The notes below the pieces were generated by a model. It was not told where the DNA came from and did no database searches. It saw only the letters and a program-made list of their open reading frames with translations. A program made the translations under genes and the position numbers. A stretch of 64,000 nt of DNA from Pyrinomonadaceae bacterium (lineage in GTDB: Bacteria > Acidobacteriota > Blastocatellia > Pyrinomonadales > Pyrinomonadaceae), in NCBI GenBank assembly GCA_051002775.1, contig JBPCLZ010000001.1:13016-77015 (forward strand). Direction: 5' to 3'. The first letter of the stretch is position 1. Every line of letters starts with the position of its first letter. Positions 9,784 through 41,442 of this stretch are shown in pieces.

Positions 9784-11163
9784 TTACTTCGCATACGAAT
9801 CCCAAATCTCACCCATAAAGAAACGTCCAAAATCTGCCACCACCTTAAGGCTTTGCGCCGCCGAAGTTGTGTTGGTGGCGTGAATCGTCGGAATCAATCC
9901 GATTAACTGCTCGCGTTTAATGTAGATCACGCCGGCCCCCACCACCGGCCCCTTGGCGTCCTTTCCTTTATGCAGACGAGTGAACAAAGTGGTGATATCG
10001 GCCCACATATCAAAGCCGGGACCGTCGTGAACGAACTTTTTGCCTGCCAGGTAATACGAGTCGCCCTCATGCTCGAAAGCCATTTCATAAATGAAGTGCT
10101 TGGTTTTTGGATCGTCGCTGGGGCTAAATAGATTCCAAATTGCATTCGTGGTGGGAATGTTAATGCCCATCGGCGCGAAGTCGATGCGAGCAGTGATCGG
10201 CGCGAAGTGTTGCGCATCCTCGATGAACCCATAGATATCTTTAACGTCGATGTCGCAATGAATCGATAGCTTTGTACCGGCCGCATCTCCCTTCTTCTCG
10301 CCGGTACGCGGATCGGTTTCGCCAAGCGAGAAACCGCCAGTCATTGTTTCGCGAAAGCTGACACCTGGTTTTGTTTGTGCAGTCATCATGAGTGTCTCCG
10401 GTTGCAGCGGAAGCCCTGCGGCGGGCACCTCGCTTAGATATTGTTTGGCTTGCGCATAGCCCATGTCGATTAGACCTGCGGTGGTAATGCGATTGAGATA
10501 GAGTTCCGGATCGAGTGGCAACTCCGCGGCGGGCTTAATGAGATGTAACCTGATCGGACGCTTGTGGCCGAAAGGCTTTTCACCCTGACTGATGCGCGCG
10601 TTGATTTCATTGATACGCTCAAACTCATCAATCAACGAACCGTTAGCGCTCATCTCGATCATGTGAACATACTGGTTGAAAAATCCGGTCTTAAATTCAG
10701 GCGTGTTGTTGATAATCCAAAGCACCCACAATTCTTCAGCTCCGCGTTGAACTGCTTCAAGCAAATTTGCATCCTTGAGCCAAACTGAGTCGGTGTACCA
10801 CACATCGCTTTTGCGAACCGGCGGCATGAATATCGGCAAACGCGGCGCCGGACGTGGTCCATGAGTGCACGCGATGGCAATGCTGTACTCGATGTACTTC
10901 CCGATCACCGTGTCGCGGTAATCAATGACGGTGATTACAAGTAAACCTTTGTTCCAAAGTCGCAAGGGGTAGATCTCGTTGCCGGGCAAAAGCGCGCGTG
11001 CCTTGTCAGCGTTAATTGAAAACGCTGCCATCAGACACGGCGAAGTGCGGCAATAAACTGGCAGGTGGAAAGGAATACCATCCACCAAAGAGTACCGACC
11101 GGATTGTGCTCGCAAGCGTTTGGGGATTCCCATTGCGCCTCCTTCACTTTGCTGCGGAGACAT
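9784..11163 (-). CDS. Chimeric hypothetical protein: acetoacetate-decarboxylase-like N-terminal fragment, central segment of uncertain (possibly patatin-half-like) origin, and a C-terminal module shared with the GMC oxidase at 14903-17323
   Basis: 459 aa. aa ~25-105 (..IYPLRLWNKGLLVITVIDYRDTVIGKYIEYSIAIA) look ADC-like. aa ~266-459 align with the last ~200 aa of the 806-aa GMC protein (F-E-M-G-FS, YY..G.K..HD, W.D.TTL, F.RFF.G...D.Y). The start could instead be Met11. Confidence 0.6.
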   Translation of the reverse strand: MSPQQSEGGAMGIPKRLRAQSGRYSLVDGIPFHLPVYCRTSPCLMAAFSINADKARALLPGNEIYPLRLWNKGLLVITVIDYRDTVIGKYIEYSIAIACTHGPRPAPRLPIFMPPVRKSDVWYTDSVWLKDANLLEAVQRGAEELWVLWIINNTPEFKTGFFNQYVHMIEMSANGSLIDEFERINEINARISQGEKPFGHKRPIRLHLIKPAAELPLDPELYLNRITTAGLIDMGYAQAKQYLSEVPAAGLPLQPETLMMTAQTKPGVSFRETMTGGFSLGETDPRTGEKKGDAAGTKLSIHCDIDVKDIYGFIEDAQHFAPITARIDFAPMGINIPTTNAIWNLFSPSDDPKTKHFIYEMAFEHEGDSYYLAGKKFVHDGPGFDMWADITTLFTRLHKGKDAKGPVVGAGVIYIKREQLIGLIPTIHATNTTSAAQSLKVVADFGRFFMGEIWDSYAK

Positions 11164-11182
11164 GGAGTCTCAGTGAGTCATT

Positions 11183-11283
11183 CAAAACAAAAAATCTCAC
11201 AGGTTATGAAGGGCGGCTTGCCCCCGCTCCTGGCTGAATGGCATTTAACGAGCGGGCAAGCCGCCCTTCCCAACCTGTGAGAT
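11183..11283 (-). terminator. Long-stem rho-independent terminator between the alpha/beta hydrolase gene and the 459-aa gene
   Basis: ~34-bp arms at 11194-11229 and 11250-11283 (ATCTCACAGGTT..AAGGGCGGCTTGCCC..CGCTC and complement). On the minus strand they are followed by TTTTTTGTTTTG. Confidence 0.6.
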
Positions 11284-11331
11284 GCTGTAACTTGAATCAT
11301 CTTCCGAACCGGTAGTGCTTCTGCGCCGCTT

Positions 11332-12393
11332 CTAATGCTTTTCATTGAGTGCCGCGAGGATGACGGGAAATGTATCTTTGGCTGCATTCTTGCCCATGAA
11401 AACATCGAGATGTCCATAGGCCGGAAAGATATGCAAACCATGAAAGTTTTTGTGTTGCTGGTTGAGCCACTCGAAAGTTTTCACCTGACTGTCGGGCAGA
11501 AAGCAGAAGTTTTTCGCGCCGGCAGTTAATACAAAACGGGCATCGGTCTGTGGTGGTTGCGCACAAAAATCGGCAGGTAGTTCTTTAAAGCCGTCCACCG
11601 AAATGAGATTGCCTTTGCGAACGCAACGCGCCATCTGTTTGAAGAAGGTTAGCGGCACGCTGGCAAATTCCTGCTTTAGCCATTCGTGCGTGTCGTTGTT
11701 TATGTTTTCGTGTCGCCACAGTGCAGGAAAGCCGGTGCCGTAAGTGAAGCTGACTTGTTTGCAAACCGCATTTTTGCACTCGTGGTGTGTTGCATTCACC
11801 AGCAACGAAACTGCCTTGGCCGTAAACGTTGGTGCGTGCAGGCCCCATTGCGGATTCAAATAATCCGTCAACAAACTCATGATGGGAACTGCTACATTTA
11901 ACTTCGTCTCGGAAAACTTCGGCACCACCGGATGGAGCGTGACGGCGTTTGCGACGATCGTTTTGACCTGTGGTAAAAGGCCGGCAACCGCCGACATCAT
12001 GAAACTCGTCGAGCCCTGACAGTGGATGATTGCTTTAACTTCGTCAGCGCCGGTTTTCTCGACAATCGTCTTGATTGCGGCAGGATGGTCATAAACAGCA
12101 GCCTTGTCGAGCGTCCATTCATTCGGCGGCAGGTCGATGCTGGCTCGCCAGTTTTCCAGCCAAACGTCGTAACCGTAATTGATCAACTCATCAACGATCG
12201 TGGTCTTTACGGGAGCGCGAAAGAGATTGGCTCGTACTCCCGCGCCATGGACCAGAATCACCGGGCCGCGCGTTGCCGGCTTCTCGCCCTGCACGTGGAT
12301 GAGATTGCACTTGAAGCCGTCACCCGCGGTGAAGACAACAGTCGTTTCTTCAAACTTTGTCACGGCTGACTGATCCTGCCCGAGTTGTGACAT
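11332..12393 (-). CDS. Alpha/beta-fold hydrolase with Cys at the nucleophile-elbow position (PhaC-like lipase-box variant)
   Basis: 353 aa. Oxyanion region PVILVHGAG, elbow AIIHCQGSTS (Cys codon at 12019-12021) and C-terminal ..PAYGHLDVF (putative His). Confidence 0.7.
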   Translation of the reverse strand: MSQLGQDQSAVTKFEETTVVFTAGDGFKCNLIHVQGEKPATRGPVILVHGAGVRANLFRAPVKTTIVDELINYGYDVWLENWRASIDLPPNEWTLDKAAVYDHPAAIKTIVEKTGADEVKAIIHCQGSTSFMMSAVAGLLPQVKTIVANAVTLHPVVPKFSETKLNVAVPIMSLLTDYLNPQWGLHAPTFTAKAVSLLVNATHHECKNAVCKQVSFTYGTGFPALWRHENINNDTHEWLKQEFASVPLTFFKQMARCVRKGNLISVDGFKELPADFCAQPPQTDARFVLTAGAKNFCFLPDSQVKTFEWLNQQHKNFHGLHIFPAYGHLDVFMGKNAAKDTFPVILAALNEKH

Positions 12394-12461
12394 GGTTTAC
12401 TTTCTCTATTACTTCACTGACGATCGCTGACCGTCCAGTTGGCAAACAAATCGGGAGAACT

Positions 12462-12591
12462 CAGTGCAGAACCCCGACGCCTGGGGGTAGGTACCGGAGC
12501 TAGGTTCCACGCCAAATAAAGCATCCGAGTGGCCTTCAACCTTGGATGCCAACATCCGGTCGCTACCCCGAGGCGTCGGGGTTCTGCACTG
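12462..12591. repeat. Inverted-repeat element in the intergenic gap of the cluster
   Basis: 29-bp arms CAGTGCAGAACCCCGACGCCTGGGGGTAG (12462-12490) and CTACCCCGAGGCGTCGGGGTTCTGCACTG (12563-12591), with one mismatch. Each arm also holds a small internal palindrome. Confidence 0.8.
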
Positions 12592-12608
12592 ATTGCACTT
12601 CACAGTTT

Positions 12609-14852
12609 TTAGCACTCCTTCTCAACCGGGATCGGCGCCGCTTCGGATGGCGGTCGCTTAATGGTAATTGGAGTTTCAATGAGTTCCGGCGTTCGCAAAT
12701 CCACGTCGGCGGCATCGAAGTCGGAACCCGGTTCATCGTGAGCGCGCTTTCGCCAGTAGCGAGCAACCTTGGGAACACCAATGGGGTAAATCGTTAAATC
12801 GCCGTTAGCAGAAATTCTAATCCTCAGAAAGTTCTTCCAGTCTGGAATTGCTAATGACGAAAATGCTTCATTTGAGTGGCGATGAAAAATGTTTAGAGAG
12901 ATGAAAAGATAGGTTCCCATAATCAGCGAACCAATGAGCCAGCCAAAAAGAAGCATGAATATCGCAGAAAAAACCAATTGACCCGGAGACTTAAAACTAA
13001 AACGCATCCATTCACTAAGCCAGGGATGCAGCAAAGAGACGCTGATGTAGGCGGCCGTCCAACCGATGACGAAAGTCGCCAGCAGGTGGGACAGACCATG
13101 AAAGCAGCCCGCGATTAGGCGATACGGTTTCGAGTGAGTATCAGTGAATACTAAGAACCCAATGAAAAGAGCGAGAATCCAAAACACTGCGCCGGGACTG
13201 ATCATCGCCGTCGAAAGTGTGGTCTTTACTGCCTTCCCAAAATCCGTAAACCCAAAGGAGCCGACATCGGCCATGACGGTCCAGGCGGTAAGCACATATA
13301 GAATGGCCGTCAAAATACCGAATTTGGGATTAAGTAACGGAAACTTAAAATTGGACCAGCCTAGCTTTCGCGAAACCTCGGCTGGCGGATAACTTGCTCG
13401 CAGTTCGAAACCTCCGTCGAGTTTCTCAGCCGCTTCACCGTGAGTCGGATGCAAGAAAGCACCACCGCCTCCGGCAGTGATTTTTTGTACGTTGTCCGCT
13501 GATTCATAGCGGCGATAGTGATGCTCGTCACCCGCAATGAAAGCCACCACCCGCGCGCGGTCGCCAATAATTTTCTTTTCCAGGTAAGCCAGATTGTTCT
13601 CGTTGAAATTCGCGTCGTCTTTCCCGTAGAGCTTTGCATAGACCCAATGCGGTTCAGCGGTGCAGATAATCACGTGATCGCCGGGTTGCATGTGGGTGGC
13701 AACATCTCGGAAATAGTCGATCTGCGGGACGTCTATGTCCGAATCCAATTGCACATCCGTGCCCAGCAGCCACCAACGTCCCGGCAAATGGAGGGCGAAA
13801 TAGCTGCGTTGCTGTTTCGTCTGCCAGCCGGCAAACCATCGCTTTTGACAAAACAGCCGGGAAAATGAAACGAGACTGTCGTACCAATCGTGATTGCCGG
13901 GAACGGCGTAAACGTGCGGATGAGAATCTCCCGAGCGATAGAGCGCTGTTTCGTAAGGCTGCACGAGTCGCCGTTGATATTCGGCGCGACTTGCCGTCGG
14001 GTAAACCTGATCTCCGCCAAAGATCAATATGTCGGCACGTTTCGTCGAGCGGTTAAGATCGTCCGGGTCAAATGGGTTTGTCAGTTCCAATGTGGGCTGC
14101 GCGATAAGGTATGCGAGCGTGTAAGTTGAATCCCAACCGTCCCCGACATCGCCGATGTAATCCAACCAGATTTCGTCGCGCAGTGGCTTACTGTCATCAG
14201 GGTTCGCTTGAGCATCGCGGCCAAGCTGGAAATCCCTCGTGTAGTCGTAATACTGATCGCTGCCGGGCGACAGTGCCTCCATCAGCCGGTAGTCGGAGTG
14301 ACGACCGAACATCGTTGAGGTAACAACTCTCATTGCTGTCCGGGCGAGTTGACCCGGATTGTACCAGCCCACCATTGAGGCCGGATCGATGACTCGGAAA
14401 CGCCAGATAAAGATTCGTTCACCCTTGGCGCCAAGTTGTTGGCTATCAAAGACGAAACTCAAATCCTGGTCCGTTTGAAATTTCTTCTGGTGCTTTTTGA
14501 CGGTTTGAATGCGGATGCCCCATTGCTGGATAGAGCTGGGATTCCGTGTCATTGCGACGACGCCGTCGCCCGCGGTCTGCAGCCGAAAAACGTTCGGCCG
14601 GTTAGGAACCCGTTTTACCACCGGCGTTTCCGGAGAGTCTTCCACCGAAACTGAACGGTCGCTTTCGGTACCATTCAAGGAAAAGGTGAGCTCAGTTCCG
14701 ACTGTGAGGGCCCCAAGGTCAGCGAGATAGGTTTCCGTGTTTTTCGTGATCTGCCTCGCGAGCTTGTAGGAAAACTCGGCAGTGAAACCCATATATTCGC
14801 GGGCGAACGACAGTGCGTCTTCGTGGGGTAGCGACTTGAAGCGTACTTCCAT
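12609..14852 (-). CDS. Calcineurin-like metallophosphoesterase fused to a C-terminal polytopic membrane domain, with an unknown ~230-aa N-terminal domain
   Basis: 747 aa. Motifs DYIGDVGDG, IFGGDQVYP, VPGNHDW, IAGDEHHY and GGGGAFLHP. They are followed by ~5 hydrophobic helices (FGILTAILYVLTAWTV.., AVFWILALFIGFLVF.., LIAGCFHGLSHLLATFVIGW.., LVFSAIFMLLFGWLIGSLIMGTYLFI). Confidence 0.75.
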   Translation of the reverse strand: MEVRFKSLPHEDALSFAREYMGFTAEFSYKLARQITKNTETYLADLGALTVGTELTFSLNGTESDRSVSVEDSPETPVVKRVPNRPNVFRLQTAGDGVVAMTRNPSSIQQWGIRIQTVKKHQKKFQTDQDLSFVFDSQQLGAKGERIFIWRFRVIDPASMVGWYNPGQLARTAMRVVTSTMFGRHSDYRLMEALSPGSDQYYDYTRDFQLGRDAQANPDDSKPLRDEIWLDYIGDVGDGWDSTYTLAYLIAQPTLELTNPFDPDDLNRSTKRADILIFGGDQVYPTASRAEYQRRLVQPYETALYRSGDSHPHVYAVPGNHDWYDSLVSFSRLFCQKRWFAGWQTKQQRSYFALHLPGRWWLLGTDVQLDSDIDVPQIDYFRDVATHMQPGDHVIICTAEPHWVYAKLYGKDDANFNENNLAYLEKKIIGDRARVVAFIAGDEHHYRRYESADNVQKITAGGGGAFLHPTHGEAAEKLDGGFELRASYPPAEVSRKLGWSNFKFPLLNPKFGILTAILYVLTAWTVMADVGSFGFTDFGKAVKTTLSTAMISPGAVFWILALFIGFLVFTDTHSKPYRLIAGCFHGLSHLLATFVIGWTAAYISVSLLHPWLSEWMRFSFKSPGQLVFSAIFMLLFGWLIGSLIMGTYLFISLNIFHRHSNEAFSSLAIPDWKNFLRIRISANGDLTIYPIGVPKVARYWRKRAHDEPGSDFDAADVDLRTPELIETPITIKRPPSEAAPIPVEKEC

Positions 14853-14902
14853 TGGGTTTGTCCTTCCGGCTGCGGGAATTCGCGGGCTTTTCCCGTGGGC
14901 AT

Positions 14903-17323
14903 TTACATCAGATTCGCGCCGTAGGTATCAACGAGCTGACCGCCAAAGAAACGTGCAAACTTGAGCATCGCCTGCAAACGCTCAGTTAATCCTTTAGCGT
15001 TCGTCACCTGCATGGTGGTCATTTGTCGCATAAAAGATGCAACCGGGATGCGCAGGATTCCTTTGCCCAGTACCCGCCCTTGATCGTTCTCGCCTTCGTA
15101 CAGCGTGATGTATAGCGTGGTGGTGTCGGACCAGCTATCAACCTGCGCTGCGTCGTGAATGGCTTTGAAGCCGTAGAAGTAATAGGTCTTACCGTCGACG
15201 GAAGAAAGCCTCATCTTGTATTGCATGCGCTTTGTTTCTACGTTTTCCCGATCGAGGAGAAAATAATTGAATTGCCCTTCAGTGACTGTTAGTGGTTGAT
15301 TGGAGAGTGCGGGTGCCACCACGCTGCCGAGCATTGGCGATACGTAGTTTACGTCCTGGACTGTGCGCTCCAGGTCGTCGGAAATTATCGTAAGAATAAA
15401 CTGGAATGGTGAGCCGTCCGCGCGACCCTGGTCTACGCCCCGTTGATACGCATCGTCAGCGTCATCAGTGACACTGGTTGAAAAATAGCCGCTCATACTT
15501 TCCGAGAACCTGACCCCGATTTTTGGCGGAAGCGTCGGAGCCTGCGGCTTCGATGGCAGTGCACAATCAAATTTCCATCGTCGGTCCTCCGCCATTATTG
15601 CGCAGCATCGTTCCGCTATAGCGGAAATGGTCAACAGGGGATTGACGCCTACTGGCCGCGGGATCACTGAGCCGTCGCTTACATAAAGGCTATCGTAGAC
15701 GGTGGTGCCCTGTGTTCCGGAAAAGACCTGCCCCTTATGATTCACCACGCCCGTTTCGGCACTATCGGCCATCACGCAACCACCCAGGGGATGAACGGTT
15801 ACCAGATCCTCGCCAGTGATCTTATTAGTAATAGGATCCTTCAGATACGTGCCGCCGAGAGCAACAGTCGCTTGTTTAAGTTTATCGCCGACTTTATGAA
15901 AAATAGGTTGGTGGCCCACGTTGGGCCAGTGTATGCGAAGCCGATCGTCTTCGAGCCTTAGTTGGCCCTTATCGTCGTCATGGGACATAACCAGGAAAGT
16001 CTGCGTGTTACGGATCGCACCGTGGTAAGCGCCGCGCACAAAACTCTCCAATTCGCGCGCGCGTTCCTGAATTCTGTCTTTCACCCCGGTGTCGGTATCT
16101 TTGCCGAGCAGCGCTGCCGCAGAGGAAAACAGTCCCGGTAAAAAAGCGGAGAAGGGTCCGGCAATAGAACCCTCTTCAATCACAAAGCCATCCGCCAGTG
16201 GCTGGTCCTTATGGCGCAGATCAACGATGCCCGTAATGCATGGACCAACCTTCTGTCTCACTTTGCCGTTATCGACAGGCGGCCGGTGGCCGAAACCGAT
16301 GCCATTAATTTCGTCGTCGCAGTTGTATGCAAAGGCAAGCACATCGCCATTGCCGGTAAAGTTTTCGCCGACCCGATTAGAAAGCACGAGTTGCCCATTG
16401 TTCTTCGAGCGCAACAATACTTCCGTAGAACCCAGGGTGCCGGCTGCCAGCACGACGATCTCTGCACTAACAAACATCGTGGGTGCATCAAACTTCTCTC
16501 GTCCCGTGTTTACCAGTTGATAGTGGACCAGCCAACGATTGTCCTTACGCGATATATAGCGCACTGACACTTCGGTAAAGATTTCTGCGCCATGATTCTT
16601 CGCGTCAGGCAGGTAGTTCATCAGAACAGTGTTCTTGGCGCGATAATTACAACCGGTCATGCAATCGCCACAACCCACACAGGGATGCTGCTCGACTCCG
16701 ACGTCGTTGAGGTTACCGGCAAACTCGGCGAAAGTTACGTTGATTGGCGGACGATAGAATGGCTGGTTCAAATATTCCGCGGACTTTTTTAGCGCTTTCA
16801 GTTTTTCAAGCGGAGGATACTCGTCGGGTTTGGACTCGTCGGGATAAGGTGACGGCTTCAGCATATCGCGGGCCCGTTTGTATCCGTCGTCCAGAATATT
16901 TGGCGTATCGCGAAACTGCCTGGGCCATTCCGGCAATTGGAAGACGCGCGGATCCGCCTGGAGCGCAACGTTCGCGTTGACCAGCGATGTGCCTCCCAAA
17001 CCACAGCCGACAAAAACGTTGATCTCTTCGTTCATACGCAGGTCATAAAGGCCAGTGCGCGAGCCGGTGTGCAGTTTCGGTAAGTCAACCTGCACTTCGC
17101 GCACAGCCTCGGCTTCCGTATCGGGATACTCGCCATTCTTTATCAGTTGATGTTTAGCGTCGAAGTCGCCTGGCTGGAACTCTTTGCCGCGTTCAAGTAG
17201 GCAAACTTCCTGACCAGCACGAGCCATGCGCGACGCAGTAATACCGCCGCCGTAACCAGAACCGACGACTATGATTTGGTAGTGACTCTTGAGGCGCTCG
17301 ATGGGTGACGAAAGACGAGCCAT
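14903..17323 (-). CDS. GMC-family FAD oxidoreductase (cholesterol-oxidase-like) with an extra ~200-aa C-terminal module
   Basis: 806 aa. IIVVGSGYGGGITASRMARAG (FAD), GCGLGGTSLVNANV, HPCVGCGDCMTGCNYRAKNT, HPLGGCVM...GVVNHKGQV...LYVSDGSVIPRPVGVNPLLTISAIAERC. A strong SD (AAGGAG) lies 6 nt upstream. Confidence 0.85.
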   Translation of the reverse strand: MARLSSPIERLKSHYQIIVVGSGYGGGITASRMARAGQEVCLLERGKEFQPGDFDAKHQLIKNGEYPDTEAEAVREVQVDLPKLHTGSRTGLYDLRMNEEINVFVGCGLGGTSLVNANVALQADPRVFQLPEWPRQFRDTPNILDDGYKRARDMLKPSPYPDESKPDEYPPLEKLKALKKSAEYLNQPFYRPPINVTFAEFAGNLNDVGVEQHPCVGCGDCMTGCNYRAKNTVLMNYLPDAKNHGAEIFTEVSVRYISRKDNRWLVHYQLVNTGREKFDAPTMFVSAEIVVLAAGTLGSTEVLLRSKNNGQLVLSNRVGENFTGNGDVLAFAYNCDDEINGIGFGHRPPVDNGKVRQKVGPCITGIVDLRHKDQPLADGFVIEEGSIAGPFSAFLPGLFSSAAALLGKDTDTGVKDRIQERARELESFVRGAYHGAIRNTQTFLVMSHDDDKGQLRLEDDRLRIHWPNVGHQPIFHKVGDKLKQATVALGGTYLKDPITNKITGEDLVTVHPLGGCVMADSAETGVVNHKGQVFSGTQGTTVYDSLYVSDGSVIPRPVGVNPLLTISAIAERCCAIMAEDRRWKFDCALPSKPQAPTLPPKIGVRFSESMSGYFSTSVTDDADDAYQRGVDQGRADGSPFQFILTIISDDLERTVQDVNYVSPMLGSVVAPALSNQPLTVTEGQFNYFLLDRENVETKRMQYKMRLSSVDGKTYYFYGFKAIHDAAQVDSWSDTTTLYITLYEGENDQGRVLGKGILRIPVASFMRQMTTMQVTNAKGLTERLQAMLKFARFFGGQLVDTYGANLM

Positions 17324-17468
17324 GAAGTGGCTCCTTTCTGAGGAAATGAGTTTTACGCGTCGGGATGCTCAGGTGTGAGCTGAGCTACCGCTGGCTGTTA
17401 AAGAAATGCTGCGAGAAAACTTTGCCAGCTAAAAATCGAATCCTTGCGTTGACTGAGGCGTTATATGC

Positions 17469-17510: not shown

Positions 17511-17805
17511 ATGTCCGATAAGCTTTAGCTTGTCGTGACGCTGCGACAAACTAAAGGAAGCTCTGATCAAGTGGCTTCGACGCGTAGCCTCGGCGTGAAT
17601 TTAGCCCGGTCTTTCAAGGCCAGGAAGAGGAGTCAACAAACCAGGCCGCGTCGCGTTAGCGACGCCTGAAACGGGGCAGATTCAACCGTCGCTACGCGAC
17701 GAGGATCACCATGACCTGGTCCCGGCGTTAAAACGCCGGGCTAAATTCATACCGACGCTACGCGTCGAGGACACTTGATCAGACCTTTCCAAAGTTTATC
17801 GGACA
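17511..17805. repeat. Repeat family B copy (terminal inverted repeats ATGTCCGATAAGCTT.. / ..AAGTTTATCGGACAT) carrying a nested family C element
   Basis: The ends match the B copies at 25754-25901, 28897-28953 and 35643-35884. The interior is occupied by the 220-bp element at 17563-17782. Confidence 0.8.
17563..17782. mobile_element. Family C MITE-like element, copy 1 (~220 bp, ~55-bp terminal inverted repeats, no ORF)
   Basis: CTGATCAAGTGGCTTCGACGCGTAGC..GAATTTAGCCCGG ... CCGGGCTAAATTC..GCTACGCGTCGAGGACACTTGATCAG. Near-identical to 41137-41355 in the same orientation. Confidence 0.8.
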
Positions 17806-17830
17806 TTTGCAGCGAGCCTGACCACAGTAT

Positions 17831-17874
17831 TTAGAAAACCCGCGGTCCTTCCCTTAAAGGGAAAAGCCGCGGGT
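17831..17874 (-). terminator. Rho-independent terminator downstream of ssb
   Basis: Minus strand: ACCCGCGGCTTTTCCC-TTTAA-GGGAAGGACCGCGGGT followed by TTTCTAAAT. Confidence 0.6.
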
Positions 17875-17909
17875 GCCATTTCTCGAACTAACCTGGAAAT
17901 TATCTGAAT

Positions 17910-25771: not shown

Positions 25772-25901
25772 CTAGGGACTGGAGGTCAGTGCCACCACGC
25801 GGTGGCGGGTGGGGTCTGGTGCCGAACAAGATCTTTGGGCAAAACCCGGCTTCGCGCGTCGTTTGTCGCGGCGTTACGACAAGCTAAAGCTTATCGGAAA
25901 T
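25754..25901. repeat. Repeat family B copy (148 bp)
   Basis: Left end ATGTCCGATAAGCTTTAGCT, right end ..GTTTGTCGCGGCGTTACGACAAGCTAAAGCTTATCGGAAAT. It overlaps the 3' end of modC. Confidence 0.8.
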
Positions 25902-25925
25902 CAAACTGACCACTACACCAGAAGC

Positions 25926-28863: not shown

Positions 28864-28896
28864 CAGAAGAACCAACGGAGTTCTGAAGCAGTTCAG

Positions 28897-28953
28897 ATGT
28901 CCGATAAGCTTAGTTGTCGTAACGCAGCGACAAACCAAAAGCTTATCGGACAT
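28897..28953. repeat. Minimal repeat family B hairpin; likely convergent terminator between ahcY and the lptFG gene
   Basis: ATGTCCGATAAGCTT (28897-28911) pairs with AAGCTTATCGGACAT (28939-28953), a perfect 15-bp match. There is an inner GTTGTCG/CGACAAAC pairing. TTTTT follows on the plus strand. Confidence 0.8.
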
Positions 28954-35642: not shown

Positions 35643-35884
35643 TTTCGCTGCAAATGACCGATAAACTTCAGGAGGTCTGATCACGTGGAAGCGTCAACTC
35701 CTTGGAGTGCGCTGGCCCGGCAGCGCTTTGGTCCGACTGACCTTTATGGCCCGCCATAGTTGAATCCTTGGCCGGCGCAGGCCAAAGCGGCGCCGGGCCG
35801 CCGCACTCCAAGGAGTTGACGCTTCACTTACTCAGCGCTTTTTTTAGTTTGTCGCGTTACCACTAGCTAAAGCTTATCGGGCAT
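35643..35884. repeat. Repeat family B copy (inverted relative to 17511-17805) carrying a nested C-like element (35677-35835) with perfect 24-bp internal inverted repeats
   Basis: The ends TTTCGCTGCAAATGACCGATAAACTT and AGCTAAAGCTTATCGGGCAT match family B. The inner ends are CTGATCACGTGG...CACTTACTCAG. The perfect arms are GAAGCGTCAACTCCTTGGAGTGCG (35688-35711) and its complement (35802-35825). Confidence 0.8.
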
Positions 35885-35958
35885 CAACTAGTGAACTCAT
35901 GGATACCTGCTTGCTTGACTTGCGTTCAAACGACTTCCTATAGTGACCCTTGCCAAAA

Positions 35959-41083: not shown

Positions 41084-41131
41084 TGGCATAGGCTTTAGCC
41101 TGTGTTTTGGCGCGGCCGCACAGACTAAGGG
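41083..41131. repeat. Repeat family D segment (GTGGCATAGGCTTTAGCCTGTG ... GCACAGACTAAGGG)
   Basis: Matches 41362-41442 and 61764-61900. Flanks family C copy 2. Confidence 0.7.
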
Positions 41132-41136
41132 AAGCT

Positions 41137-41355
41137 CTGATCAAGTGGCTTCGACGCGTAGCGTCGGCGTGAATTTAGCCCGGTCTTTCAAGGCCGGGAA
41201 GAAGAGTCAACAAACTAGGCAGCGTCGCGTTAGCGACGCATGAAAAGGGGCAGATTCAATCGTCGCTACCGACGAGGATCGCCATGACCTGGTCCCGGCG
41301 TTAAAACACCGGGCTAAATTCATACCGACGCTACGCGTCGAGGACACTTGATCAG
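41137..41355. mobile_element. Family C MITE-like element, copy 2
   Basis: Aligns end to end with 17563-17782, with scattered substitutions and the same terminal inverted repeats. Confidence 0.8.
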
Positions 41356-41361
41356 ACGTTC

Positions 41362-41442
41362 CTAAGGTCTAGCCACAATGATTAGCCACAGGCTTTAGCT
41401 TGTGTCCTTTGCAGGGGGAAGCACAGACTAAGTCTATGCTAC
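41362..41442. repeat. Repeat family D segment
   Basis: CTAAGGTCTAGCCAC..GCCACAGGCTTTAGCTTGTG..GCACAGACTAAGTCTATGCTAC. Confidence 0.7.

Follow-up and report, generated by a model that had tools for sequence, protein, structure and literature searches.

On balance, we favor the view that the gene block lying between accA and ssb in the window, i.e., the 64,000-nt stretch of Pyrinomonadaceae DNA analyzed here, derives from a widespread, uncharacterized operon for cytoplasmic, membrane-associated lipid-ester processing, of which it would be a recently broken copy. As claimed in the original prediction, accA and ssb flank the block and four ORFs were found as described, all on the minus strand, to which every window coordinate below refers: gene 1 (14903-17323, 806 aa), gene 2 (12609-14852, 747 aa), gene 3 (11332-12393, 353 aa) and gene 4 (9784-11163, 459 aa). 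However, comparison with two relatives, L007 and L005, revealed that this set is not a four-gene unit but the remnant of a seven-gene operon. The ssb-accA interval in L007 (97% identity) and L005 (80%) encodes a GMC flavoenzyme with a beta-barrel (GMC-barrel), a membrane metallophosphoesterase (MPE-TM), an alpha/beta hydrolase (ABH), an acetoacetate decarboxylase (ADC)-like protein, two small membrane proteins and a patatin-barrel protein.

Gene 4 is the scar of a deletion

Blastn and base-by-base comparison with L007 located a deletion junction at 10837..10838. The missing stretch corresponds to positions 11932-13908 of L007 and amounts to 1,977 bp (659 codons), in frame, with a 2-bp TG microhomology at the junction. 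The same junction was seen again in an independent Logan assembly (run SRR33880241). The deletion therefore generated gene 4, in which residues 1-99 of the ADC-like protein (10837-11133, 99% identity to L007 ADC 1-99) are fused to patatin residues 166-516 (98% identity to L007), comprising a remnant of residues 166-300 (10432-10836) and the C-terminal beta-barrel module (9787-10431). The protein described earlier as chimeric is thus an odd fusion of two operon genes. Its most likely start is M11 (11133), the position at which both the intact ADC-like gene of L007 and the independent 449-aa Logan call begin. Its homologues are ~516-aa patatin proteins that cover only 76% of its length.

The intact counterparts of the two halves were recognized as Patatin (E 1e-21) and ADC (E 5e-16), and their conserved catalytic residues are GGG, S58 and D182 for patatin, and K136 and E82 for ADC. 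Lost with the deleted stretch were the ADC active site, including its Lys, the two small membrane proteins and, from patatin, the oxyanion loop and the nucleophile Ser. In this genome, activity can remain only in GMC, MPE-TM and ABH. Gene 1 and its L007 orthologue are 97% identical, with a dN/dS of 0.12.

A Shine-Dalgarno sequence (AAAGGAG, 17324..17340) precedes the ATG of gene 1 by 7 nt, as previously noted. In contrast, the plausible promoter proposed for gene 1 found no support, as a sigma-70 scan of the upstream region returned 4 sites vs 5.8 expected, which is not beyond chance. Intergenic gaps of 215 and 168 bp occur inside the cluster. The gap between genes 3 and 4 contains a very stable hairpin followed by a U-tract (11190..11290, MFE -76.7 kcal/mol, z = -6.2), which also shows as a self-inverted match to L007. 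This structure is possibly an internal terminator or attenuator, and cotranscription is therefore not assured.

The intact operon is conserved across phyla

In metagenome loci anchored on the patatin gene, ABH-ADC-p160-p128-patatin-barrel was strictly syntenic, with a fixed gene order. ABH and ADC were each present in 33/33 loci with upstream DNA, p128 in 30/33 and p160 in 25/33. GMC, which occurs in the operon with or without the barrel, was found in all 12 loci with room on both sides, and MPE in 14 of 17 well-bounded loci, as one of four BLAST-unrelated types. The complete set is present in Holophagales, Hyalangium (Myxococcota) and Agarilytica (Gammaproteobacteria), and adjacency of the families holds in several phyla. 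Furthermore, genes 1 and 3 are fused in ~1,135-aa proteins (GMC-barrel-ABH). These fusions and the adjacency across phyla support that the genes belong together. A match of p160 to anthrone oxygenase fell below threshold (18 vs 27 bits). We found no match to a characterized operon in curated libraries or in the literature, in agreement with the original prediction.

The two gaps and the internal hairpin would suit a coincidental adjacency of unrelated genes, but this explanation is refuted by the strict cross-phylum synteny and the gene fusions, and we give it almost no credence. An anti-phage defense or toxin module with a patatin phospholipase effector is disfavored and seems highly improbable. 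Patatin effectors do occur in known defense systems, and near-identical strains carry two very divergent types of gene 2 alleles. However, PADLOC matched 0/8 proteins tested, no sensor, nuclease or cyclase gene was seen among the recurrent neighbors, and the synteny holds at a single chromosomal site flanked by housekeeping genes.

Gene 1 codes for a GMC flavoenzyme with a conserved four-cysteine motif

Gene 1 matches GMC_oxred_N (E 6e-13) and GMC_oxred_C (E 3e-11) in Pfam, and solved cholesterol oxidases in a PDB sequence search (E 9e-24). Its FAD and GMC motifs are as reported earlier, with VVGSGYGGG at residue 19, HPLGG at 511 and GVNP at 559. The cholesterol-oxidase-like core spans residues 1-585 (15569-17323) and is followed by the extra C-terminal module (residues 590-806, 14906-15556), a ~210-aa beta-barrel. 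Conversely, HPCVGCGDCMTGCNYRAKNT, formerly taken for a cholesterol-oxidase signature, is skipped by alignments to solved cholesterol oxidases and resembles only 4Fe-4S ferredoxin motifs in the PDB, none significantly (best E 0.23). It carries a ferredoxin-type C-x2-C-x2-C-x3-C motif (residues 215-225, 16649..16681) that yields weak Fer4 Pfam matches and is kept in 120/120 gene 1 homologues, as well as in operon GMCs of ~30% identity. Conservation of this motif points away from an oxidase and suggests that gene 1 codes for a dehydrogenase with a putative Fe-S site, which is assigned from the motif only.

The modules of genes 1 and 4 are related, as first proposed (E 3e-25, with 30% identity across 219 aa). 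No Pfam family covers the barrel, its PDB neighbors are not significant, and neither is its likeness to lipocalins (best E 0.027, TM 0.19-0.26). Across the ~2,600 clusters that barrel sequences form, the module is either free-standing or attached to GMC, ABH or patatin, without exception.

Genes 2 and 3 resemble lipid- and phosphoester-cleaving enzymes

Gene 2 matches Metallophos in Pfam (E 4e-6) and the phosphoesterase motifs ascribed to it (DxG, GDxxY, GNHD, H and HH) are invariant. It consists of a variable N-domain (14388-14852), the MPE domain (13383-14387), a membrane domain (12873-13382) for which ~5 helices had been claimed and 4-5 hydrophobic segments were observed (residues 511-656), and a C-terminal beta domain (12612-12872). 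The closest folds to its AF2 model (pLDDT 83.7) in Foldseek were mammalian purple acid phosphatases (E ~3e-6) and the acid-sphingomyelinase-like SMPDL3A (9e-4); its sequence had no detectable match among PDB chains. No partner gene lay within 10 kb in ~55/80 genomic loci anchored on gene 2, which is therefore not exclusive to the operon.

The predicted H-C-Q-G-S nucleophile elbow of gene 3 (12010-12024) was borne out by 29 homologues, in which H124, C125, G127, S128 and H328 are invariant. An alignment with gastric lipase (1K8Q, E 5e-7) pairs C125 with the catalytic Ser and places H328 at the catalytic His motif. Position 295, the presumed counterpart of the catalytic Asp of acid lipases, is an invariant Asn.

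The invariant Cys, together with weak matches of gene 3 to PhaC (E 7e-4), evokes mobilization or synthesis of storage lipids or polyesters, the Cys hydrolase working through an acyl-enzyme in the manner of a PHA synthase or depolymerase. TAG, wax-ester or 3-hydroxyalkanoate inclusions would be attacked by patatin as an ATGL-type lipase, and the 3-hydroxy acids set free would be turned into methyl ketones, with GMC and the ADC-like enzyme performing oxidation and decarboxylation. All enzymes appear cytoplasmic, and a secondary-alcohol dehydrogenase and a member of a beta-keto-acid decarboxylase family make a chemically coherent pair. Yet the PhaC score is 18.7 bits vs a cut-off of 365, the nearest solved relatives of gene 3 are acid lipases, phasin, PhaA/B and wax-synthase genes were not seen among the recurrent neighbors, and the near-constant phosphoesterase is unexplained. 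We thus regard this scenario as unlikely.

Cys-nucleophile alpha/beta hydrolases often transfer rather than hydrolyze, as for PhaC. The Cys hydrolase and patatin could accordingly be acyltransferases that build a specialized lipid-derived metabolite or signal, instead of serving catabolism or remodeling. The biosynthetic ADC-superfamily protein MppR is among the weak fold matches, and accessory content differs between loci (DUF4345, FAD_binding_4, a second GMC). Nevertheless, PKS, NRPS, acyl-CoA ligase and carrier-protein genes do not recur nearby, and the operon sits among housekeeping genes and was lost here without further decay, making biosynthesis quite unlikely.

Proposed lipid-ester processing at the membrane

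The nearest relatives of the operon enzymes (cholesterol oxidase, gastric/lysosomal acid lipase, patatin) act on lipids, which supports the lipid-remodeling part of the original prediction but not its sterol or hopanoid specificity, for which no specific pointer emerged. In that version, a hydrolase resembling acid lipase/cholesteryl esterase would free a polycyclic or isoprenoid alcohol from its ester, and the cholesterol-oxidase-like enzyme would oxidize it. Cholesterol oxidase, gastric lipase and lysosomal acid lipase/cholesteryl ester hydrolase are indeed the best solved relatives, and in Halotia, GMC-barrel and barrel-ABH genes adjoin genes for a RoxA-like cytochrome c and a P450. However, gene 1 scored only 148 bits against the 850-bit cut-off of the cholesterol-oxidase equivalog, no sterol or hopanoid gene was seen among the gene calls around the cluster and the recurrent neighbors (examined without a specific search), patatin, phosphoesterase and ADC-like enzyme would have no obvious role, and the operon is found in many lineages. 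We consider processing of such esters very unlikely.

Returning to the favored lipid-ester operon, a hydropathy scan found hydrophobic segments in no protein other than gene 2 and the two small membrane proteins. The system would operate at the cytoplasmic face of the membrane, because the soluble proteins have no N-terminal hydrophobic segment and gene 2 is membrane-anchored. While gene content, synteny, the deletion, motif conservation and folds are documented by the data, the substrate, step order, Fe-S cofactor, topology and role of the barrel in this scheme are inferred. At the membrane, acyl or hydroxy-lipid groups of a membrane or stored lipid ester would be set free or passed on by the patatin-barrel protein and by the Cys hydrolase, which would form an acyl-thioester. 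The phosphatase-like enzyme would then strip a phosphate or phosphodiester head group, and the cholesterol-oxidase-like enzyme would dehydrogenate a freed secondary alcohol to a ketone, passing electrons via the Cys-bound Fe-S cluster to a membrane acceptor, not O2. With its conserved Lys, the ADC-like enzyme would act on the (beta-)keto product, for instance by decarboxylating a 3-keto acid. Finally, the ~210-aa barrel common to several enzymes may bind the hydrophobic substrate or hold the enzymes together.

Comparison with known systems

Gene 1 shares the FAD GxGxxG and HPLGG/GVNP motifs of class I (GMC) cholesterol oxidase (Streptomyces ChoA, PDB 1B4V), a secreted enzyme in which the latter motifs carry the catalytic His and Asn. 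It departs from ChoA by its score far below the equivalog cut-off, the lack of a hydrophobic N-terminus, the conserved CxxCxxCxxxC insert, unaligned to ChoA, and the additional barrel. The GMC fold is also that of the alpha subunit of B. cepacia FAD-GDH (PDB 6A2U), a direct-electron-transfer FAD dehydrogenase whose 3Fe-4S cluster is held by Cys212/218/222 (PMC6719666). By residue numbering alone, the four-Cys motif of gene 1 lies near the loop that holds this cluster, a likeness suggesting that electrons leave FAD via Fe-S for an external acceptor. However, the similarity is only E 1e-4, the ferredoxin-type spacing differs from the CC-x4-C-x3-C of FAD-GDH, and the cluster has neither a hitchhiker gamma subunit nor a cytochrome c subunit.

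Gene 2 has the DxG / GDxxY / GNHD / H / HxH blocks that form the metal-ligand signature of purple acid phosphatases (ACP5, PDB 1QHW/1WAR), its top Foldseek match (TMt 0.56). Unlike these enzymes and SMPDL3A, it lacks a hydrophobic N-terminus, is fused to the membrane domain, and carries a variable N-domain and a C-terminal beta domain without structural neighbor. Gene 3 aligns with gastric and lysosomal acid lipases (PDB 1K8Q, 1HLG, 6V7N) at the HxQG elbow and the YxHLD His motif, whereas its homologues have Cys in place of the catalytic Ser (29/29) and an invariant Asn295 at the presumed site of the acidic residue of acid lipases, and gene 3 itself has no hydrophobic N-terminus. The intact patatin keeps the GGG / GxSxG / D motifs of patatin-like phospholipases (RssA, VpdC) but carries an additional barrel, and the intact ADC-like protein keeps the GxxxWGxPK Lys of the acetoacetate decarboxylase family, while gene 4 itself has neither active site.

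YbbAP-TesA is an ABC system described as a lipid hydrolase and extraction complex, in a paper that mentions no phosphoesterase (PMC12646458). The cluster in the window differs from it by having no ABC transporter. In Steroidobacteraceae and relatives, short gene 2 homologues lie directly 3' of a tesA-like GDSL lipase gene, ybbA and ybbP, a context that provides a second, independent tie of the MPE-TM family to lipid esterases.

Conservation of the operon

The original prediction placed four genes on the minus strand at 9784-17323, between accA and ssb, and all four ORFs are present, encoding proteins of 806, 747, 353 and 459 aa (genes 1 to 4). The base composition of this block did not differ from that of the rest of the window. 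In two relatives, the Pyrinomonadaceae MAG L007 (gene 1 97% identical) and L005 (80%), seven genes lie between ssb and accA. They encode a GMC protein ending in a beta-barrel (GMC-barrel, 806 aa), a metallophosphoesterase with transmembrane helices (MPE-TM, 747 aa), an alpha/beta hydrolase (ABH, 349 aa), an acetoacetate decarboxylase family protein (ADC-like, 310 aa), two small membrane proteins of 160 and 128 aa (p160 and p128), and a patatin domain ending in the same type of barrel (patatin-barrel, 516 aa).

We examined conservation of this arrangement in two anchored scans. ORF clustering was noisy in high-GC loci, and Pfam-confirmed families alone were counted. The scan anchored on patatin-barrel covered 80 loci of JGI metagenomes (53-94% identity) and revealed the fixed order ABH, ADC, p160, p128, patatin-barrel. 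Where at least 4.6 kb of upstream sequence was available, ABH and ADC were found in 33/33 loci, p128 in 30/33 and p160 in 25/33, and GMC was present in 12/12 loci with room on both sides. The scan anchored on gene 2 in GTDB genomes recovered the full set in Holophagales, Hyalangium (Myxococcota) and Agarilytica (Gammaproteobacteria), and partial sets in Betaproteobacteria, Nitrospirales and other lineages; about 55 of its 80 loci had no partners. Furthermore, homologues of gene 1 include GMC-barrel-ABH fusion proteins of ~1,135 aa, and in Halotia a barrel-ABH protein is encoded two genes away from GMC-barrel. The fusions and the two scans show that the cluster is a conserved unit. Chance adjacency, under which the four genes would merely be neighbours, is contradicted by this synteny and is refuted. 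The neighbourhood on which the original prediction depended is thus conserved, its families being adjacent across phyla.

The gene-2-type MPE-TM was found in just 25 of the 80 patatin-barrel loci. Neighbouring positions were occupied by three further metallophosphoesterase families that BLAST related neither to gene 2 nor to one another, and 14 of 17 well-bounded loci had one of the four types. Displacement by non-orthologous enzymes in this way speaks for phosphoester cleavage as an integral step. The replacements are 473, 461 and 496 aa long (type B in L110, L114, L118 and L163; type C in L134, L145 and L151; type D in L136 and L139). A small DUF4345 membrane protein was also observed in 24 of the 80 loci.

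The Nostocaceae locus of Halotia branconii (CP124543, 10001-21922 of locus L001) presents a different, oxidative context for the GMC-barrel and ABH pair: GMC-barrel, a DUF6765 protein, the barrel-ABH fusion, a 482-aa protein of no assigned family, a RoxA-like dihaem cytochrome c, a P450 and another hydrolase, in this order.

Gene 4 is a deletion scar

Gene 4 had been described as a chimeric protein ending in the same module as gene 1. The shared ending stood, but the chimera proved to be the scar of an in-frame deletion and not a new architecture. Homologues of gene 4 are patatin-like proteins of ~516 aa that match just its last 76%, while its first ~100 residues match ADC at 29.0 bits, below the gathering score of 29.8 (59.2 bits for the intact ADC-like gene of L007). 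Residues 11-109 are 99% identical to residues 1-99 of the L007 ADC-like protein, and residues 109-459 are 98% identical to residues 166-516 of its patatin-barrel. Missing from the window are L007 positions 11932-13908, which amount to 1,977 bp or 659 codons; the microhomology is 2 bp (TG). The junction, at 10837/10838 of the window, is also seen in a Logan assembly produced independently from run SRR33880241.

The deleted stretch held both small membrane proteins, the patatin oxyanion loop (G29-G31) and nucleophile (S58), and K136 of the ADC-like protein (GxxxWGxPK). Gene 4 lacks residues 1-165 of its 516-aa patatin orthologue, and with them the GGGxR loop and the GxSxG motif; the Schiff-base Lys of ADC, K136, lies outside the retained residues 1-99. 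A Pfam scan of gene 4 returned no Patatin match, and PDB sequence searches with gene 4 and with the ADC-like protein returned nothing meaningful.

The seven-gene form is carried also by distant lineages, which marks the deleted form as derived. The deletion was a recent event, and the remnants exhibit no further decay. Their dN/dS values (0.05 and 0.17) were indistinguishable from those of the intact genes (0.06-0.12), so few substitutions having accumulated that relaxed selection on gene 4 could not be demonstrated. In this genome, only the GMC, MPE-TM and ABH proteins can still be active. For annotation, "chimeric protein" denotes a deletion scar here, and the labels "cholesterol oxidase" and "RssA" are likely misleading for these genes.

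Gene 1 is a GMC flavoprotein with a four-Cys motif

Gene 1 belongs to the GMC superfamily, as predicted, with GMC_oxred_N at 49.5 bits and GMC_oxred_C at 44.4 bits (gathering scores 23 and 24.6), the FAD motif GxGxxG at residue 19, and the His and Asn motifs at 511 and 559. Its described likeness to cholesterol oxidase held in part: solved class I enzymes matched gene 1 at E 9e-24 in a PDB sequence search, but the whole protein scored 148.3 bits against the NCBIfam cholesterol oxidase equivalog NF058674, far below its cut-off of 850 bits.

A C-x2-C-x2-C-x3-C motif at residues 215-225 is kept in 120/120 of the homologues listed and occurs also in ~30%-identical GMC proteins without barrel from other operons. 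It finds no aligned counterpart in solved cholesterol oxidases, and its resemblances were solely of ferredoxin type, none of them significant. In the FAD-dependent glucose dehydrogenase (FAD-GDH) of B. cepacia, a 3Fe-4S cluster (Cys212/218/222) is carried on the Glu197-Asn229 loop (PMC6719666). The motif of gene 1 lies near this FAD-adjoining loop (Cys212-222) by residue numbering, as opposed to residue-level alignment. From the motif, we infer that gene 1 may be an Fe-S dehydrogenase and not an oxidase. Genes for the partners of FAD-GDH-type enzymes, the hitchhiker (gamma) and multihaem cytochrome c (beta) subunits, are absent from the four window genes and from the seven genes of L005 and L007. 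A look-up of gene 1 by exact sequence gave no recorded entry.

Gene 2 is a purple-acid-phosphatase-type metallophosphoesterase

The prediction of a calcineurin-type phosphoesterase with about five TM helices was borne out by a Metallophos match of 27.7 bits (threshold 21.5), by invariant motif blocks and by four to five hydrophobic segments within residues 511-656. The invariant metal-ligand blocks are D235/G237, G280-D281-Y284, G319-N-H-D322, H402, D442/H444 and H471, that is, DxG, GDxxY, GNHD, H and HH, a set that forms the ligand signature of purple acid phosphatases. Foldseek searches with an AF2 model (pLDDT 83.7) placed mammalian purple acid phosphatases at the top (E ~3e-6, TMt 0.56, probability 1.0), followed by SMPDL3A. 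Gene 2 is therefore a calcineurin-like metallophosphoesterase of the purple-acid-phosphatase type. Its membrane and C-terminal domains had no structural neighbour, and a PDB sequence search with the family profile gave no match.

We also observed that gene 2 of the window (12609-14852) and of L007 (8136-10379) belong to two allele types that have diverged deeply, although the strains are nearly identical elsewhere: identity is 53% overall and 24% in the N-domain, against 95-98% in the flanking genes. The window allele is 79% identical to that of L005, the level expected for that lineage. These observations suggest that the gene 2 cassette was replaced by recombination in the L007 lineage.

Gene 3 is an acid-lipase relative with a Cys nucleophile elbow

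Gene 3 matched Pfam Abhydrolase_1 weakly. Among solved structures, it is closest to the gastric lipases of dog and human and to lysosomal acid lipase. Cys125 falls on the catalytic Ser of the acid lipases, replacing the GHSQG nucleophile (HSQG to HCQG), and His328 falls on their YNHLDF motif, at the catalytic His of xHLD. H124, C125, G127 and H328 are invariant among 29 homologues. The alpha/beta hydrolase with an H-C-Q-G-S elbow that the original prediction described is thus confirmed.

The Cys nucleophile is the sole feature that gene 3 has in common with PhaC. A role in storage-lipid or polyester metabolism would be in line with that residue; however, gene 3 scored only 18.7 bits (threshold 365) and 13.8 bits (threshold 623) against NCBIfam PHA synthase models (PhaC class I/III), far below the level required. 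Processing of sterol or hopanoid esters, one of the remodelling functions originally proposed, agrees with the closest relatives of the enzymes, but nothing else fits it and the proposal was not upheld.

The shared barrel appears to define a new family

Genes 1 and 4 share a homologous C-terminal stretch of ~215 residues, as predicted (30% identity, E 3e-25). A confident model of the ~210-aa module (pLDDT 89.5) shows a barrel made of long antiparallel strands, together with a long C-terminal helix. Foldseek found no significant match in the PDB (best E 0.027, TM 0.19-0.26); the weak top matches were calycins (L-PGDS, nitrophorins and nitrobindin), none of them significant. A Pfam scan of 26 barrels assigned no family. 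A profile search of 1.84 billion representatives gave 2,583 clusters (E <= 1e-3; counted at 50% identity), in which the barrel occurs alone or as GMC-barrel, barrel-GMC, GMC-barrel-ABH, barrel-ABH and patatin-barrel. Stand-alone barrels were common in this search; one of 201 aa (12596-13201 of L004, another Pyrinomonadaceae MAG) directly follows a GMC-barrel gene and is 61% identical to the gene 4 module.

Expression signals and repeats

Gene 1 is preceded by the predicted Shine-Dalgarno sequence (AAAGGAG, 7 nt before the start). The promoter thought plausible was not recovered, as a sigma-70 scan gave no more sites than chance. Between genes 3 and 4, a hairpin of -76.7 kcal/mol (11190-11290, minus strand; z = -6.2) followed by a U-tract is present in L007 too. 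The ABH-ADC gap spans just ~15-30 bp in most other lineages, so this hairpin has the appearance of a terminator or REP-like element inserted specifically in this lineage. Just past the ssb stop codon (17850-17905, minus strand), another hairpin, rich in GC and followed by TTTTCT, was missing from the consensus scan; it looks like an ssb terminator and would keep the transcription unit of gene 1 apart from ssb.

The ssb-gene 1 intergenic region also contains a MITE-like element of ~290 bp with 87-nt imperfect inverted arms (17511-17806), which is the stretch unalignable to L007. A second copy (90% identical) lies at 41088-41371, and fragments lie near 25861-25902, 28887-28939, 35645-35687 and 35825-35885. 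The only Rfam matches were Acido-Lenti-1 within this element (17721-17767, 35 bits, near the gathering score of 37) and a miRNA match on a hairpin, which was spurious.

Proposed function

The intact operon combines two esterases (patatin and the Cys-type acid-lipase relative), a phosphoesterase, a putative secondary-alcohol-type flavin dehydrogenase and a Schiff-base enzyme of a beta-keto-acid decarboxylase family. This set would fit a pathway that takes apart or remodels, step by step, a hydroxy-lipid bound through ester and phosphate: deacylation, removal of the head group or phosphate, conversion of the freed hydroxyl into a ketone by oxidation, and then decarboxylation or cleavage of this keto product. 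That the enzymes act consecutively on one molecule is supported by the GMC-ABH fusions, and the barrel may hold a hydrophobic substrate or tie the enzymes together. A hydropathy scan detected no hydrophobic N-terminal segment in any soluble component, which suggests that the system may be cytoplasmic and membrane-peripheral.

On balance, we lean towards an operon for lipid-ester processing that is broken in this genome. Specialised-metabolite synthesis was considered as an alternative. Anti-phage defence was rejected, since no PADLOC component model matched any of eight proteins (four from the window and four from L007). It is a tentative and rather doubtful extension that the intact operon constitutes a previously undescribed pathway, present in several phyla and built on the barrel and Fe-S GMC proteins, which would turn ester- and phosphate-bound hydroxy-lipids into ketones through hydrolysis, removal of phosphate, dehydrogenation by Fe-S/FAD and Schiff-base decarboxylation. 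Compared with lipid-ester processing in general, a specific route from 3-hydroxy acids to methyl ketones is much less likely. If the pathway exists, a natural knock-out/wild-type pair would be available in the window strain and its 97% relative.

The cluster is an interesting lead and not a startling one. Part of the system is destroyed in the window. Should the operon prove to be what it seems, it would represent an unstudied route of membrane- or stored-lipid turnover in hundreds of soil and sediment bacteria, in lineages that here include Acidobacteriota, Myxococcota, Gammaproteobacteria and Nitrospirota. Three components deserve biochemical attention: the new barrel domain, which occurs with three different families of lipid enzymes; the acid-lipase relative, whose predicted nucleophile is Cys in place of Ser; and the relative of cholesterol oxidase with a probable Fe-S cluster, which would make it a dehydrogenase.

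Comparison with known systems

Many of the partner-less gene 2 loci carry a short MPE-TM directly 3' of genes for a tesA-like GDSL lipase, ybbA (ABC ATPase) and ybbP (MacB/FtsX permease). Recent work showed that YbbAP-TesA forms a complex for lipid hydrolysis and extraction; the paper makes no mention of an MPE partner (PMC12646458). These short homologues lack the N-domain and were observed in L049, L051, L055, L058, L061, L083 and other Steroidobacteraceae and proteobacterial loci; in L049, the permease and the MPE follow one another within a single open frame. Full-text literature searches found no description of the gene combination reported here, in agreement with the initial remark that the set could not be mapped to a characterised pathway. 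Each of the enzyme superfamilies is already known. What appears uncharacterised is the operon as such, together with the barrel family, the acid-lipase clade with the Ser-to-Cys change and the GMC clade with four Cys.
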